From the NCBI GenBank assembly GCA_900320085.1, contig ONRC01000005.1, positions 35,735-99,734 of the forward strand: DNA of 64,000 bases, written 5' to 3'. The notes under the pieces are model-generated. The model had not been told where the DNA came from. It worked only from the letters and a program-made list of their open reading frames with translations, and did no database searches. Of the stretch, positions 2,496-41,988 are shown in pieces. The translations under genes were made by a program, and so were the position numbers. Position 1 is the stretch's first letter. Each line of letters begins with the position of its first letter. Source of the stretch: an uncultured Eubacteriales bacterium (GTDB taxonomy: Bacteria > Bacillota > Clostridia > Christensenellales > Aristaeellaceae).

Positions 2496-3743
2496 TTGTA
2501 TTTGATTTTACCACGGCCGGTGGAAACGGCTTTGAACCGTCTGGAAACGGCGGGCTATCCGGCCTTTGCGGTAGGCGGGTGCGTGCGCGACCACGTACTG
2601 GGCTTTACCCCCCACGATTACGACATCTGCACCGCCGCCACCCCGGAGGAAATGCAGCGGGTTTTTCAAGGGGAACGCACCATTGAAACGGGCTTAAAGC
2701 ACGGCACCCTGACGGTGCTGCTTGGCGGGATGCCGCTGGAAATCACCACCTTCCGGGTGGACGGCGCGTATTCCGACGGAAGGCACCCTGATTCCGTGCG
2801 CTTCACCGCGCGGGTGGAGGACGATCTGTCCCGCCGCGACTTCACCATCAACGCCATGGCGTACTCGCCTGTGGCCGGGTTGGTTGACCCCTTTGGCGGT
2901 CAGGAAGATTGCAAAGCTGGGATCATTCGCTGTGTGGGCGATCCCGCTGCCCGATTCGGGGAGGACGCGCTGCGCATCCTGCGGGCGCTGCGGTTTTCCG
3001 CCCGGCTGGGCTTCCCCATCGAGGACGCGACCGCCCAGGCTGTCCGGGAGGGCAGAAGCCAGCTAGGCCACGTCAGCCAGGAACGCATTGCGGTGGAACT
3101 GACGGGCGTGCTGCAGGGCGGCCACGCCGCCGGCGTGCTCAAGCAATTTCCCGAGGTGATCGAAACCGTCCTGCCGGAGTTAAGTCCCCTGATGCGCGGC
3201 GATGATTGGCTGCTAACCCTGAAAACCATTTCTTCTGCGCCGAAGGAGGCCGAGCTCCGATGGGCCGCGTTTCTTCTGCAATGCGGCGCAGATGCGGAGA
3301 GCAGCGCGAAAACGGCCCGCGAAATTTTGAAAAGCCTGAAAATGTCCGTCAAAATGATGGACACCGTATCCGAATTGGTAAGCTATCAGCGCGCTGACCT
3401 GCGCCTTGAAACCATGCAGGAAATGCTGATGCTTGTCGGTCCGGAACGGCTGGGGCAGCTGATCCTGCTGCGGCAGGCTGTGCGAACCGCCGAAGAAAAA
3501 GAAAGCCCGGACGCCGTCGCCCGGGACACGGAAGCACTGAGAGAAAAGCTGTCGTCATTGCTCAGCGAAAACGCCTGCTACACGCTTTCTCAATTGGCTG
3601 TGAACGGAAAGGACATGGCCGCTCTCGGCCTGCGCGGCCCCGCCATCGGGGAAACGCTCCACGCCCTGCTGCTGCAAGTGGTGCGCGGGCAGGTTGAAAA
3701 TGAACGGGATGCCTTGTTGAACACGGTGAAAAAGACACTTTAA
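2496..3743 (+). CDS. cca: CCA-adding tRNA nucleotidyltransferase
   Basis: AVGGCVRDHVLGFTPHDYDICT, RDFTINAMAY and ALRILRALRFSARLGF motifs of polyA polymerase/CCA enzymes. The track ORF (1986..3743) is 5'-extended. A TTG at 2496 is preceded by GGAAGGAG at 8 nt spacing. Confidence 0.85.
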   Translation: MYLILPRPVETALNRLETAGYPAFAVGGCVRDHVLGFTPHDYDICTAATPEEMQRVFQGERTIETGLKHGTLTVLLGGMPLEITTFRVDGAYSDGRHPDSVRFTARVEDDLSRRDFTINAMAYSPVAGLVDPFGGQEDCKAGIIRCVGDPAARFGEDALRILRALRFSARLGFPIEDATAQAVREGRSQLGHVSQERIAVELTGVLQGGHAAGVLKQFPEVIETVLPELSPLMRGDDWLLTLKTISSAPKEAELRWAAFLLQCGADAESSAKTAREILKSLKMSVKMMDTVSELVSYQRADLRLETMQEMLMLVGPERLGQLILLRQAVRTAEEKESPDAVARDTEALREKLSSLLSENACYTLSQLAVNGKDMAALGLRGPAIGETLHALLLQVVRGQVENERDALLNTVKKTL

Positions 3744-3745
3744 GT

Positions 3746-4425
3746 CACGACGGAGCGAGGGCCTATGCGGCCCTCGTGCACCTGCACCAGGAGATTTCTC
3801 ACGGGGCTGCCGCCCGGCCTACGCTGAGAATGATCCACTGGATCATTCTCCGGGCGCTTCAGCCCTCCTGGACCTCAATAGCGGAAACTACATGAATTGT
3901 AAAATCTGCTTGGTTCCCGCTGATACAGGGAAGAACGCGGAAGTCTGGCTTAGTGCCGTTGTGCTTCTGACCCGGCGGATGAATCGCCGATGACCGCCTG
4001 TGGCGGGAATTTCATCGGCGATGAAATCAGGCGAAACGAGCAATGTCCGCATGAAGCGGACTTGCGACGGCCTGCGGGGAACGCCGCCAGCCCGGATGCT
4101 TTGCATCCGGGGAAAGCCAGGGAAGAATCCGCAGGGGAAAGTTTACTTTCCCCCTCGGATTTTCCCGGGCTTTCTTGGGTCAGAAGTCCTCATCCTTTTC
4201 GTAACCCCAGCGCGACAGGCGGAGCTTGGCTGCTTTTCCCAACTACGTTATTTCGCCAAATGCGGGTCCAGGGACGAAGCACGGACAGCCGCCTGTGGCG
4301 GATGTTCTGTCCGTGCTGAGATCAGCCGAAACGAGCAATCTCGCCATGAAGGCGAGTTGCGACGATTGAGGCTGCGGATACTCAGGACCCTGGTTGGGGT
4401 CTGGGGCGAACAGCTGCGTGTTTTA
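3746..4425 (+). repeat. Family-A modular intergenic element, copy 1 (longest; carries modules M1, M2 twice, M3)
   Basis: Collinear sequence identity with 20941-21530 (+) and 31781-32055 (-). Starts 3 nt after the cca stop codon. Dense nested hairpins and no coding-like ORF. Confidence 0.85.
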
Positions 4426-8404: not shown

Positions 8405-8520
8405 CGTGCATCCGCTGGGGGCGCCGTCCGCAAAGATGGCTGAGACAGAACCCTTGGAACCTGTGTAGATCATCCTACCGTAGGGAAGCGGCGCGCGGCC
8501 TGAAAAGGCCTGCGTTTTAT
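8405..8520 (+). promoter_or_regulatory. TPP (THI-box) riboswitch with terminator-type expression platform
   Basis: CCGCUGGGGGCGCC...GGCUGAGACAGAACCCUUGGAACCUG...CUACCGUAGGGAAGCGG matches the THI-element conserved core (GGGG.GC, CUGAGA, ACCCUU.GAACCUG, GUAGGGAA). It is followed by GCGCGGCC-UGAAAA-GGCCUGCG-UUUU. The downstream gene is a ThiT-type transporter. Confidence 0.88.
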
Positions 8521-13556: not shown

Positions 13557-13566
13557 ACTTTTTTGT

Positions 13567-13669
13567 AGGGGAAACCGCTCTTTGGACAACCTCATCCGGC
13601 CCTGTGGGCCACCTTCCCCTCATAGGGGAAGGCTAAAAACGGTTTTCCCCACACCCCTTTCCGAGAAAG
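13567..13669 (-). repeat. Family-C palindromic element, copy C1 (inverted orientation)
   Basis: The reverse complement reads TTTCTCGGAAAGGGGTGTGGGGAAAACCG...GGATGAGGTTGTCCAAAGAGCGGTTTCCCC, with an internal CCTTCCCCT-ATG-AGGGGAAGG hairpin. Homologous to 18634-18760, 29263-29323 and 40648-40814. Confidence 0.8.
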
Positions 13670-14898: not shown

Positions 14899-14992
14899 GG
14901 GTGCTTTCCTCTCTAAATTCTTATTGGTGCGATGGATGATATAATGGAAATCTTCAATTCACAAACACAAGTAAGAAAAGCGTCTTCAAAAG

Positions 14993-15285
14993 CCTTCCCC
15001 TCGCAGGGGAAGGTGTCAGGCGCGGAAACAAGATGGAAAGCGTGATCAAGATAATCCGCGCCTGACGGATGAGGCGCTCCCCCAGTTACATGCTCACATA
15101 TTGCCGGGTGAGTTCACCTCATCCGAGCCGCGCGAACTATCTTGACTTCTTTTTCCTACTTTGTTCCGCGCGGCCCACCTTCCCCTGCGAGGGGAAGGCT
15201 TTTGGAAAACCTTTTACTGCTTTAAAGTTCCCTTTCTCAAACTCCTCTTTACAACCAAATGGGCCTTCCCCAAAGCGGGGAAGGC
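14993..15285. repeat. Family-B multi-hairpin element (five consecutive hairpins) plus one extra CCTTCCCC hairpin
   Basis: Hairpins: CCTTCCCCT-CGC-AGGGGAAGG, TCAGGCGCGGA...TCCGCGCCTGA, CGGATGAGG...CCTCATCCG, GCCGCGCGAA...TTCCGCGCGGC, CCTTCCCCT-GCG-AGGGGAAGG, then CCTTCCCC-AAAGC-GGGGAAGG at 15264-15285. Confidence 0.85.
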
Positions 15286-18615: not shown

Positions 18616-18633
18616 CAAATACCCTTTTATACC

Positions 18634-18760
18634 TTTCTCGGAAGGGGGTCTGGGGGAAACCATCTTTGGGGCCGAAGCGCCCGGGAAACCTGCCCTTGGG
18701 CTGGTTTTCAGCGGAGGCCGGGCCGGAAGGCCCCGGACAGCAAAGAGCGGTTTCCCCCAG
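18634..18760 (+). repeat. Family-C palindromic element, copy C2
   Basis: TTTCTCGGAAGGGGGTCTGGGGGAAACC...CAAAGAGCGGTTTCCCCCAG, ending 10 nt downstream of the gyrB stop codon. Confidence 0.8.
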
Positions 18761-20940: not shown

Positions 20941-21530
20941 GCAAAGGGAGACGACGAGGCGAGGGCCTGTGCGGCCCTCGTGCACCTGCACCAGGAGATT
21001 TCTCACGGGGCTGCCGCCCGGCCTACGCTGACAATGATCCACTGGATCATTGTCCGGGCGCTTCGGCCCTCCTGGACCTCAATAGCGGAAACTGTTTGAA
21101 TGATAAAGTCAGCTTGGTTCCCGCAGAAGCGGGGAGGAACGCGGAAGTCTGGCTTGGCGCCGTGGCGCTTCTGGCCCGGCGGCAAAGCCGCCAGCCCGGA
21201 TGCTTTGCATCCGGGGAAAGCCAGGGAATCAACCGCAGGGGTAAGTTCACTTTCCCCTGCGGTTGATTCCCTGGCTTTCTTGGGCCAGAAGCCCTCAAAC
21301 TATCCGTTACCCCAGCGCACCAGGCGGAGCTTGTTTGCTTACCTCAAATCCGTTATTTCGCCAGTTGCGGGTCCAGGGCAGTCACCGCCCTGGCGCAGGA
21401 CGAACCGCCGATGACCGCCTGTGGCGGAATTCTCATCGGCGGTGAGATCAGCCGAAACAAGCAATGTCCGTAGGACTTGCGCCGATTGAGGCTGCGGAAC
21501 TGGGGGGCGCGCAGCCCCCAGCGTTCCCTT
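20941..21530 (+). repeat. Family-A modular intergenic element, copy 2 (carries M1, M3, one M2)
   Basis: Near-identical to copy 1 over 20941-21180 and collinear thereafter. Lies between the gyrB upstream region and the mscL 3' end, antisense to both neighbours. Confidence 0.85.
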
Positions 21531-29262: not shown

Positions 29263-29323
29263 TTTCTCGGAAGGGGGCCAGGGGGAAACCGCTCTTTGGC
29301 CTACAAAGAGCGGTTTCCCCCAG
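29263..29323 (+). repeat. Family-C palindromic element, minimal copy C3
   Basis: TTTCTCGGAAGGGGGCCA then GGGGGAAACCGCTCTTTG-GCCTA-CAAAGAGCGGTTTCCCCC, a perfect 18-bp stem. Confidence 0.85.
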
Positions 29324-39410: not shown

Positions 39411-40577
39411 TTATTTGGAATGAAGAAACGCCTGATTCGCCCGGATGAACGCGATGCGCTGCTTCACGCAGTCCACGCTGCGGCCGGGGTCGGCGGGGGT
39501 GTTGAACACATAGTCCTTGAGTCGATCAATATCGGTGGTGGCGACGTGGAGGCGGGTATCGCTGGAAGCGTAGTAGATGTATACCTTGCCGTCCGGCGCG
39601 GCAATGGCACCGTTGGTGAAAGCCACGTTGCTCACGTCGCCCACGCGCTCGTCCCCCAGGGGCCCGATCAGGAATCCGCCGGGCTCGGCGATCACCCGGG
39701 AGGGATCGTCCAGGGCCGTGGCGAAGCAGTAAATCACATACCGCAGACCCGCCGCCGTGTTGCGCACGCCGTGGGCGATATGAATCCAGCCTCTGTCCGT
39801 TTTGATGGGCACCGCGCCCGCGCCGTTCTTGCTTTCGGTGATGGTGTGGTACTTGCGGACGGAGGTCATTTTTTCTTCGTCAATGACCGCGTGGGTGATG
39901 TCGTCGCACAGGCCGAAGCCGATGCCGCCGCCGGAACCGGTTTCGATAAAGTCGTCCATGGGCCGGGTGTAGAAAGCGTATTTGCCGTTCACAAATTCCG
40001 GGTGCAGGCACACGTTGCGCTGCTGGGGCGAGCGCAGGGTGACCAAGTTCGGCAGCCGCTCCCAGGTTTTCAAATCCTTGGTGCGCACGATGCCCGCGGC
40101 GGCCACGGCGGCGGAGAGATCGTTCACCGACGTATCCTTGCTTTCCGAGCAGAACACGCCGTAGATCCAGCCGTCCTCGTGCCGGGTCAGGCGCATGTCG
40201 TACACGTTGGTTTCCTCAGGGCAGGTGTCGGGCAGGAGGACGGGCTCGTCCCAGAAGCGGAAGCCGTCCACGCCATTATCCGATTGCGCCACTGCGAGAA
40301 AGCTCTTGCGGTCGCTGCCCTCCACCCGGGCCATGAGGGTGAATTTGCCGTCCAGCAGGATCGCGCCGCTGTTAAAGACCGCGTTCACGCCCAGGCGCTG
40401 CATCATAAAGGGATTCGTTTCCGGGTTCGGATCGTACATCCAGAAGGGCGGGATGTGATCCCGGGTCAGAACCGGGTTCGTCCAGCGCTCAAAAATGCCG
40501 TTGTACCGCTCCCGGTTCACGGTGTTTTTTGTTTGAATCAGCTTTTCGTACCGCGCTTCCAATTCCTGATAGGTCAT
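39411..40577 (-). CDS. GH130 4-O-beta-D-mannosyl-D-glucose phosphorylase-like enzyme
   Basis: 388 aa. The N-terminus [41 protein letters not shown], and GH130 blocks ([30 protein letters not shown]), resemble the Bacteroides/Ruminococcus MGP type. Adjacent to an epimerase. Confidence 0.8.
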
Positions 40578-40647
40578 GATTACTTCCTCCATTTTTGCAA
40601 ACAGTCATAAAAAACGAGTCATTTGTTTTTACTTTCCCCCTTTCGCC

Positions 40648-40814
40648 TTTCTCGGAAGGGGGTCTGGGGGAACCGCTCTTAGCCTTCCCCCCGCAGGGGG
40701 GCCGCAGCGCCCGGAAAATGATCCAGTGGATCATTTTCAGCGTAGGCCGGGCGGCAGCCCCGGATGGTGGCCCGCAGGGCCGGATGAGGTTATCCAAAGA
40801 GCGGTTTCCCCCAG
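40648..40814 (+). repeat. Family-C element, copy C4, expanded by nested insertion of module M1 (inverted) and a GGATGAGG module
   Basis: TTTCTCGGAAGGGGGTCTGGGGGAACCGCTCTTAG ... 40707-40762 equals the reverse complement of the M1 block found in family A ... CCAAAGAGCGGTTTCCCCCAG. Confidence 0.85.
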
Positions 40815-40818
40815 AATA

Positions 40819-41988
40819 TTATTTGGGATTCCTGCGTAAATACTCCATGCACATGCGTCCGTTGTGATAGGGGCACTTCCAGGGCTCCACGATGGGTTCG
40901 TCGCTGCCGGGGGTGCCGTCCTCATGCAAATACCAGAACCATTCGCTGCCGGGGCGCTTGTCGATAAGGTGATCCCGGATGTAGGTCCACTGCGTGACAA
41001 CGGCGTTTTTATAGCGTTCTTCGCCGGTCTTTTCATACGCGTTCAGGAAGCCCAGCAGCGCTTCCGCCTGTACCCACCAGATGCGCTTCTGGTTCACGAC
41101 GCCCCGTTCGCACTCGTTGGCAAAGCCGTGGTCGGTGAAGGCGGCATGATAGGTGTGATCGGCCATCTGCAAAAGAAGCGGACGGATGCGGGCGGTCAGC
41201 GCCGGGTCGTTCAGCGCTTCCAGGGTCTTTTCCGCCAGCCAGCTGGTTTCAATGTCGTGACCGAAGGAGTGCAGGTCGATCAGGGTGTTGTATTCGTGAT
41301 CGAAGAACACCTCCTGCCGCCGCTTTTCCTTGTTGTAAATCTTGTTTTCAAAAATATCCAGAATCTCATACAGCCGGGCTTTGACGCTTTCATCCGGCCA
41401 GGCCTGATATAAACCCGTGTAGCCCTCCATCACATGCAGCAGGGTGTTCATGGTGCGGGTGGCCATCACGCCGTTTTCACTGAGCTTTTCATTGCTCTCC
41501 GGCTGCCAGTCTGCGGTGAAGGCTTCCAGATAGCCGCCTGCGTCCCGGCACTTGGTTTCGATGATTTCAAACAGGGCTTTGGCCCGTTCCAGCGCGTCCC
41601 TCTCCCCTACTGCCCGGTAATAAGCCGACAGGGCGTAGATAGCGAATGCCTGGTTATAGGTGTGCTTGGTGCCGTCAGCCACTGTGCCGTCCGCGTGCAG
41701 GGCCCAGTACACCCCGCCGTTTTTTTCATCCATCATGTGTTTCAGCATGGCGTAGGCGTGGCGGGCGTCGTCCAGCAGTTCTTCCTCTTTCAGCAGCATG
41801 TAAGCCTCTGAGAAAAACCAGAGGATGCGGCTGTTCAGGATGCAGCCCTTGTCCGCCTCCGGGCGGCGGGTCAGGTCAAAGTCCACCTGGCCGATAAAGC
41901 CGCCGTTTTGATCGTCCCGCAGCCCGCGCCAAAACGGAATGATGCGCCGGGTCAGTTCATTCCGGATTTCCGAATGCATATCTGGCAT
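40819..41988 (-). CDS. N-acylglucosamine 2-epimerase-fold enzyme, cellobiose 2-epimerase-like
   Basis: 389 aa. RIIPFWRGLRDDQNGGF, CILNSRILWFFSEAY and HVMEGYTGLY are AGE/CE family patterns. Partner of the GH130 MGP in the known mannobiose pathway. Confidence 0.75.
   Translation of the reverse strand: MPDMHSEIRNELTRRIIPFWRGLRDDQNGGFIGQVDFDLTRRPEADKGCILNSRILWFFSEAYMLLKEEELLDDARHAYAMLKHMMDEKNGGVYWALHADGTVADGTKHTYNQAFAIYALSAYYRAVGERDALERAKALFEIIETKCRDAGGYLEAFTADWQPESNEKLSENGVMATRTMNTLLHVMEGYTGLYQAWPDESVKARLYEILDIFENKIYNKEKRRQEVFFDHEYNTLIDLHSFGHDIETSWLAEKTLEALNDPALTARIRPLLLQMADHTYHAAFTDHGFANECERGVVNQKRIWWVQAEALLGFLNAYEKTGEERYKNAVVTQWTYIRDHLIDKRPGSEWFWYLHEDGTPGSDEPIVEPWKCPYHNGRMCMEYLRRNPK

Follow-up and report, generated by a model that had tools for sequence, protein, structure and literature searches.

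Small palindromic repeats such as REP, BIME, RPE and MITE-like sequences are common in bacteria, and their mode of spread is known in few cases; for uncultured gut anaerobes, almost nothing is known about it. REP and BIME sequences of enterobacteria and the REPIN-RAYT system of Pseudomonas consist of short imperfect palindromes in many, mostly intergenic copies, which form mosaics and tandem clusters. Rickettsia palindromic elements (RPE) have a length of approximately 100-150 bp, possess no known transposase and can sit in frame in genes. ERIC sequences occur in size classes that differ by blocks at fixed internal points, BOX elements are built of A-B-C sub-elements, and Correia elements duplicate a TA target. 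HUH enzymes of the IS200/IS605 type typically act on a single strand that is folded into a hairpin and adjoins a conserved single-stranded segment, and insertion takes place without target duplication.

The DNA analysed in this study, in the following called the window, is a stretch of 64,000 nucleotides (contig C68, 35735-99734) from an assembly of 2.91 Mb in 90 contigs with 57.9% G+C, which is 91% complete. A preliminary description had reported a 56-nt palindromic block (M1) nested in two repeat families, here referred to as A and C. This observation was confirmed. The block is present at 3802-3857 (+), 21006-21061 (+) and 40707-40762 (-), and it occurs in both orientations within otherwise unrelated repeats, with sharp borders. 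The third copy is indeed flanked by a GH130 gene (39411-40592, -) and a gene of the GlcNAc-2-epimerase family (40819-41988, -). The 12-bp palindrome described within M1 is perfect in all three copies in the window, its third pair being G:C, C:G and A:T, respectively, which represents compensating changes, and the GCCCGG/CCGGGC clamp was found as well. The central 19-mer, which is palindromic and hence scored on either strand, occurs at three sites in the window, where dinucleotide shuffles predict 0.00 sites. A BLAST search of the whole genome with short words revealed ten full copies of the 56-mer, six in the context of family A and four in that of family C.

The size given for the module did not hold. 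A discrete, self-contained hairpin of 63-64 nt, here called the cassette, has M1 as its inner 56 nt, and we regard it as fairly probable that this cassette is a nested DNA hairpin module of REP/BIME-like character. It would have been placed by structure-directed insertion or recombination, for which no enzyme was identified, and would then have spread mainly as a passenger of its host repeats. With REP/BIME and REPIN-RAYT it shares the occurrence as many intergenic palindromes in mosaics and clusters, compensating changes in the hairpin and a lineage-specific expansion. Unlike REP, it has no conserved GTAG-type head, is longer (64 nt) and carries a conserved unpaired stretch of 10 nt. Furthermore, its units are nested in one another's loops, whereas those of REP/BIME lie side by side. 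As in ERIC/IRU, Correia (NEMIS) and BOX elements, the hairpin-forming intergenic repeats described here are modular, with optional blocks at fixed points; unlike in ERIC, Correia and BOX elements, their nesting is recursive over three levels, each of which is a hairpin.

Structure and copies of the hairpin cassette

The outer stem of the cassette is formed by GGGGCTG (5' half) and CGGCCCC (3' half). It encloses a stem of 7 bp (CGCCCGG/CCGGGCG); 3' of CGCCCGG follow about 10 conserved, unpaired nucleotides (CCTNCGCTGA) and then an apical part consisting of an A-run, a variable stem of 5-8 bp, a CACNG or CAAAGG loop and a T-run. The left 26 nt of M1 recur at about a dozen further loci, where another apical stem and then the same right clamp follow; M1 is therefore one variant of a wider unit.

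With a covariance model built from 69 copies, 26 cassette copies were detected in the genome in at least five host contexts, a number that is an upper figure, as a single locus divided between two contig ends may have been counted twice. Copy 1 (3803-3865, +; 90.8 bits) and copy 2 (21007-21069, +; 92.2 bits) lie in the loop of a CCAGGAG/TCCTGG hairpin of family A, and copy 3 (40698-40761, -; 94.4 bits) is located in a scaffold (S-short) which itself is nested in the loop of a family C hairpin. As single-stranded DNA, all three fold far more stably than shuffled sequences (z -5.7, -5.0 and -6.1, respectively). A fourth, divergent copy (18664-18737, -; hairpin proper 18668-18734; 63.3 bits) with the apical stem CCAGCCC/GGGCAGG lies directly in a family C hairpin loop without scaffold S; this family C hairpin and its tail (18625-18760, -; hairpin 18650-18760) are found between gyrB and the next ORF. 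On contig C72, a copy occurs in a fifth context, which is common in related genomes. All copies in the window are intergenic. In agreement with the preliminary description, which had placed M1 at a hairpin tip, the cassette occupies the loop or the arm of the host's own hairpin, and cassette and host together form the tips of longer hairpins (fold z -3.8 and -5.4 versus shuffles).

In an alignment of 115 matches (98 distinct), which was fitted to the covariance model itself, nine out of ten apical pairs change on both sides. The number of cells with double changes was 193 compared to 56.1 +/- 8.9 in shuffles, none of 500 shuffles reaching 193, and slid controls gave at most 54. When the partner column was slid by 1-3 positions, the proportion of paired cells dropped from 90% to 34-55%. 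The conservation of the CCTNCGCTGA stretch and of the 7-bp stem is partly built in, because the scan of the genome collection demanded both and left only the apical part free.

The strong apical covariation, together with the conserved unpaired stretch and CACNG-like loop, would also suit a cis-acting structured RNA, that is, a protein-binding or processing hairpin, a messenger stabiliser or an attenuator, with the unpaired stretch and the loop as recognition surface. A U-G pair in the outer stem points in the same direction; it is nearly fixed (91 of 95 distinct sequences), and it concerns one position only. Nevertheless, we consider an RNA element unlikely. Among approximately 980 cells of the ten apical pairs, only three G-U and five A-C combinations occur, and G-U pairs are thus nearly absent from the variable stems, which is unusual for helices of such variability. 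Either strand can consequently form the stem equally well, which is what DNA would be expected to show. Stems that are perfect on both strands would result from a DNA palindrome or from concerted copying of one arm from the other, and would be untypical of RNA helices as variable as these. In the favoured interpretation, the cassette would accordingly act as folded single-stranded or cruciform DNA.

Host repeats with and without the cassette

Family C is a perfect 20-bp hairpin (CTGGGGGAAACCGCTCTTTG - 5 nt - CAAAGAGCGGTTTCCCCCAG), and 64 of 65 copies possess a conserved tail on one side. Discrete size classes exist, namely short (44-45 nt, 45 copies), medium (87-89 nt, 16 copies) and long (151-153 nt, three copies), besides a single copy of 138 nt; the long form in the window is a fourth long copy, which fell outside the script count due to a 1-nt gap in one arm. 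All three size levels are present within the window. The short form (29279-29323, +) is a hairpin of 20 bp whose 5-nt loop holds no nested element. The loop of the medium form (13565-13652, +) holds S-short, consisting of ACCTCATCCG, a small GC hairpin, CACC and then a hairpin CCTTCCCCT/AGGGGAAGG; it is empty at the junction CACC-TTCCCCT (the hyphen marks the junction) and carries no cassette. The long form (40633-40814, -), with its hairpin at 40664-40814 and its conserved tail at 40633-40663, corresponds to the medium form plus a cassette placed after CACC(T/A)TCC. Three levels of nesting thus exist, with the cassette in scaffold S and scaffold S in the family C hairpin.

Scaffold S occurs furthermore with a larger first hairpin (S-long), which is the core of a repeat of approximately 200 nt with about 100 copies. 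Two S-long copies with empty junctions lie in the window at 14992-15015 (-) and 15176-15199 (+), that is, within 14992-15199. The empty junction CACC-TTCCCCT...AGGGGAAGG was found 148 times when S-short and S-long were counted together, and about a dozen S-long copies are filled at exactly this point with a cassette of the CAGTCC stem type. The S-long repeat (window 14957-15206) exists in two subtypes with compensating changes in the first hairpin (TCAGGCGCG.../AGCCGCGCG...). In two scaffold S copies (G000:C78:53755 and G000:C56:50516), the cassette junction is occupied by about 115 nt of unrelated, GC-rich sequence, so that this junction accepts more than one kind of insert.

Of family A, the genome contains the 360-nt body in about 70 copies, whereas a left module is present about 40 times. 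In the window, the first copy (3739-4414, +) is a mosaic with extra optional modules, and the second one (20959-21378, +) is given as the aligned part of an element that extends further. Among the copies listed, 45 show the plain hairpin CCAGGAGAT-TTC-ATCTCCTGG and six are filled in that loop. All four combinations of left-module type and filled or empty state exist; as each type is found with and without the cassette, this requires recombination, or gains or losses that happened more than once. An extra block of the first window copy (approximately 3979-4068) was also observed in a copy at C68:106936.

The cassette is hence present or absent at an identical junction in at least three host repeats, each time in the loop or the arm of a host hairpin. 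Cassette, scaffold S, family C hairpin and family A modules are variously combined, as in BIME-type mosaics, and the filled and empty sites at three nesting levels within one genome form an unusually clear set.

Judged by related loci, the composites containing the cassette are evidently insertions. The spacer between the epimerase and the GH130 gene (window 40593-40818) comprises 226 nt, in comparison to 12-13 nt at two related metagenome loci, L155 and L163, with protein identities of 89% and 93%, respectively. It consists of the long family C element, the tail and about 60 further bases, and the family C insertion lies between the stop codon of the epimerase gene and the ribosome-binding site of the GH130 gene, which is kept. 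The last codons of the epimerase gene differ from those at the related loci, and the insertion lies within a likely operon.

Contig C78 harbours a prophage (large terminase, portal, PcfJ) with three scaffold-plus-cassette units. One of these, with a length of 117 nt (39 codons), is inserted in frame into the primase/helicase gene of the prophage (L151:6439-6556 = G000:C78:44438-44555, in the ORF L151:5792-8941), which stays open. The insertion lies in the linker that joins the CHC2 zinc finger to the TOPRIM domain. Primase homologues with 77-83% identity have a short linker and no insertion at this position, and the 117-nt insertion is lacking from the homologues P0004, P0006, P0009 and P0010 and from the phage L154. 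Two other homologues apparently contain a translated empty scaffold, and a homologue with 96% identity carries a version of the same length in another frame. The cassette resembles RPEs in being palindromic, in having no known transposase and in this in-frame coding insertion. Unlike RPEs, it shows a single coding insertion, nearly all of its copies being intergenic, it has no sequence similarity to them, and the hosts are free-living gut Clostridia and their phage. The prophage was also considered as a vector and rejected; relatives of the primase occur in nine of 101 genomes, and only three of these nine contain the cassette.

Junctions, mode of spread and candidate enzymes

When filled and empty junctions of scaffold S and family A were compared, no target-site duplication was detected except for an ambiguous CC at the S junction, so that the duplicated flanking bases considered in the preliminary description were not found. 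In this respect, and in that no parent insertion sequence was found, the cassette differs from Correia and MITE-like repeats. The borders of the insert are somewhat ragged: three bases in the 3' arm of the family A host are replaced, and in most filled S copies the T preceding the insert is changed to A. Family C has a T-run in just one of its two flanks.

Within one host context, the cassettes of this genome are 94-96% identical, in comparison to 90% between family A and family C/S-short; the divergent cassette type shows 91% identity between two unrelated contexts. The copies cluster by host context, and therefore most cassettes spread as passengers of their hosts. A handful of placements (at least five in this genome) followed by amplification of the hosts would explain most of the copies, and independent movement of the cassette is probably rare at best. 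The proposal that M1 is an independently mobile or recombining unit was thus supported in part: a discrete unit at fixed host junctions was found, and independent transposition was not. The alternative named in the preliminary description, a simple segmental duplication with M1 confined to two contexts, agrees with the AATGATCC stem type of this genome, which occurs in the contexts A and C/S-short only, and does not agree with the wider hairpin family, nor with the same stem type in related genomes, where it has further contexts.

Across genomes, 122 cassette instances were assigned to contexts by flank patterns of our own making, and stem types and contexts combine freely among them. The AATGATCC stem type was found in the contexts A, S, C-direct, ctx2 and others (up to five contexts per type), the CAGTCC stem type in S, C-direct, ctx2 and ctx7, and context S holds at least seven apical stem types. 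In the genome studied here the cassette was seen as single units and not as the inverted doublets typical of REPINs, and in the relative G085 in direct tandem arrays. The unit of these arrays comprises approximately 84 nt (3' hairpin of S plus cassette) and is repeated up to about nine times (L145:3900-4830 = G085:C83; L146, L147); the array of L145 sits near a contig end. In our preferred interpretation, the steps following placement would consist mainly of passenger multiplication with the host repeats, including such tandem arrays.

Conversely, the filled forms could be ancestral and the empty forms could have arisen from precise loss of the hairpin by slippage or tip cutting, with unrelated hosts being reached by recombination or segmental duplication. 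The C/G runs at both borders (TTCC-GGGG...CCCC-CCT) offer short repeats for slippage, and on contig C35 a cassette copy has shed just the apical stem. Moreover, the loops of short family C hairpins differ from copy to copy with near-identical stems, as independent deletions of the centre would give, and both the ragged junctions and the clustering of copies by host fit such losses. It is nonetheless quite unlikely that no insertion took place at all. Empty sites outnumber filled ones by about 7 to 1 or more in every host, and a 64-nt unit of at least 90% identity still had to enter repeats that have no other sequence in common. In addition, one context holds several discrete stem types in different genomes, and a sister species of the same genus possesses about three family C hairpins, with neither cassette nor scaffold S. 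Recombination or precise hairpin loss on the one hand and true transposition on the other cannot be told apart; no orthologous locus was found that differs by the cassette alone.

Two modes of placement are conceivable for the module favoured here. A structure-directed cut-and-join enzyme might read the hairpin and the conserved single-stranded stretch, or template switching or recombination might take place at extruded hairpins. A more far-reaching possibility, which we put forward only tentatively, is a new kind of structure-targeting mobile DNA, in which hairpins would integrate into the loops or arms of other extruded hairpins, three levels deep and also in frame in genes. The mover would then be an enzyme other than Y1/RAYT and IS110, or the cell's own machinery for hairpin cutting and repair, and CCTNCGCTGA would be the site of recognition or cleavage. 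The conserved single-stranded motif could point to such an enzyme. If placement is enzymatic, this would represent a tool-like activity that recognises DNA hairpins; if it is due to the cell's own handling of hairpins, it would show the growth of palindromes by recursion.

A RAYT or IS200-type gene, which had been named as a candidate mover, was not found in this genome (no match to the Y1 transposase family PF01797 in an assembly that is 91% complete), which sets the cassette apart from REPIN-RAYT. Among the related genomes, Y1 genes showed no association with the cassette, being present in four of nine cassette-positive and 29 of 92 cassette-negative genomes, and for IS110 (PF01548) no association was seen across 101 genomes. 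TnpB was rejected as a candidate, as the sole match to PF07282, a weak one of 22 bits, is the zinc ribbon of RadA. Multi-copy ORFs were likewise rejected as transposases, since they start inside repeat DNA and contain no Pfam domain. Neither a parent insertion sequence with matching ends nor a true multi-copy transposase ORF was detected in this assembly. Metagenome assemblies drop repeats and insertion sequences, and a missing transposase is therefore weak evidence. Like the ends of IS200/IS605 and PATEs, the cassette has a hairpin that adjoins a conserved single-stranded stretch, and the lack of a target duplication is likewise shared with insertions by these enzymes. It differs from IS200/IS605 derivatives in that it shows no co-occurrence with Y1 and, as far as weak proxies tell, no replication-strand bias, and in that it consists of one hairpin without distinct left and right ends. 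By these features it fits neither the REPIN-RAYT systems nor the MITEs nor the IS200/IS605 derivatives.

Throughout the genome, repeat DNA produces false paralogues, long ORFs whose first 90-110 codons are translated repeat, with up to about 90 tblastn matches (for example G000:C72:29991-31109 and G000:C62:31705-33309). Such false ORFs and "paralogues" matter for the annotation of metagenome-assembled genomes from the rumen.

Orientation, read depth and distribution

If the cassette acted as RNA, copy 3 (40698-40761) would be suitably placed, as it lies in a likely operon in the sense of the genes. As a whole, neither cassettes nor scaffolds showed an orientation bias with respect to flanking genes, GC skew or gene-strand bias; the latter two are weak proxies of the replication strand in an assembly of 90 contigs and agree poorly with each other (33 versus 20 windows). 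Of the window cassettes, one is oriented with the genes and another against them. Unlike REP/BIME, the cassette is not enriched at the 3' ends of genes, and neither are the scaffolds. A function as intrinsic terminator was rejected, because the apical stem is AT-rich, the T-run itself is paired and no orientation preference exists. In a search against Rfam 15, the cassette gave no match at gathering scores or at E values up to 1.

The repeats do have depth in RNA libraries, which would suit an RNA element. However, the excess of depth over the repeats was about equal in DNA and RNA runs, roughly 18-19 fold, as determined with contigs of two DNA and two RNA runs. The contigs of these four runs stop at the repeats, and the sequence of a loose end at 3798 is that of family A with an empty junction, although it may stem from any of about 45 empty copies. 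The presence and absence at the same site and the in-frame coding copy also fit selfish DNA better than an RNA module. An element acting at the DNA level is therefore favoured.

A pattern scan of 185,579 species genomes, with the apical part left free, yielded 107 cassette loci. Of these, 93 belong to assemblies from rumen or gut, whose titles name Clostridia, Clostridiales or Christensenellaceae and in one case Synergistales; 14 of the 107 are lone matches in unrelated taxa of high G+C content and were taken as chance. When genomes of the same family were sampled, the covariance model detected the cassette in nine out of 101, corresponding to six of 72 genera with this genome included. The number of copies per positive genome was at least 47 in two genomes, 41 in one and 2-10 in the others. 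In phage collections no cassette match was obtained, and a single weak match of 57 nt in plasmid collections, on a Rhodobacter plasmid, was considered as chance. DNA of the window is present in runs from bovine and sheep gut metagenomes. The cassette would hence be one module of lineage-specific, nested and mosaic palindromic repeats in a clade of rumen Clostridia. A full-text literature search, of which the listings and the openings of abstracts were seen, revealed no description of these repeats.

This patchy occurrence also bears on the possibility that the hairpin is bound as a duplex by a protein of the host cell, for example gyrase, a nucleoid protein or a regulator, and is kept for its use to the cell. 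The cassette is a palindrome without preferred orientation, one of its copies neighbours gyrB and gyrA, and the BIMEs of E. coli bind gyrase and IHF. Still, such a function is very improbable. Neither the sister species nor 92 of 101 relatives possess the cassette, and the number of copies varies from 2 to at least 48 among carriers. Moreover, the apical sequence varies freely with the pairing kept, which argues for recognition of the folded strand and not of a duplex sequence.

The repeats also interrupt assemblies; several contigs of this genome terminate within such sequences, and S-long in particular holds many contig ends. Beside the repeats, a TPP riboswitch (RF00059, 61.1 bits) was identified at positions 8407-8503 of the window, which is the sole Rfam match in the window reaching the gathering score.
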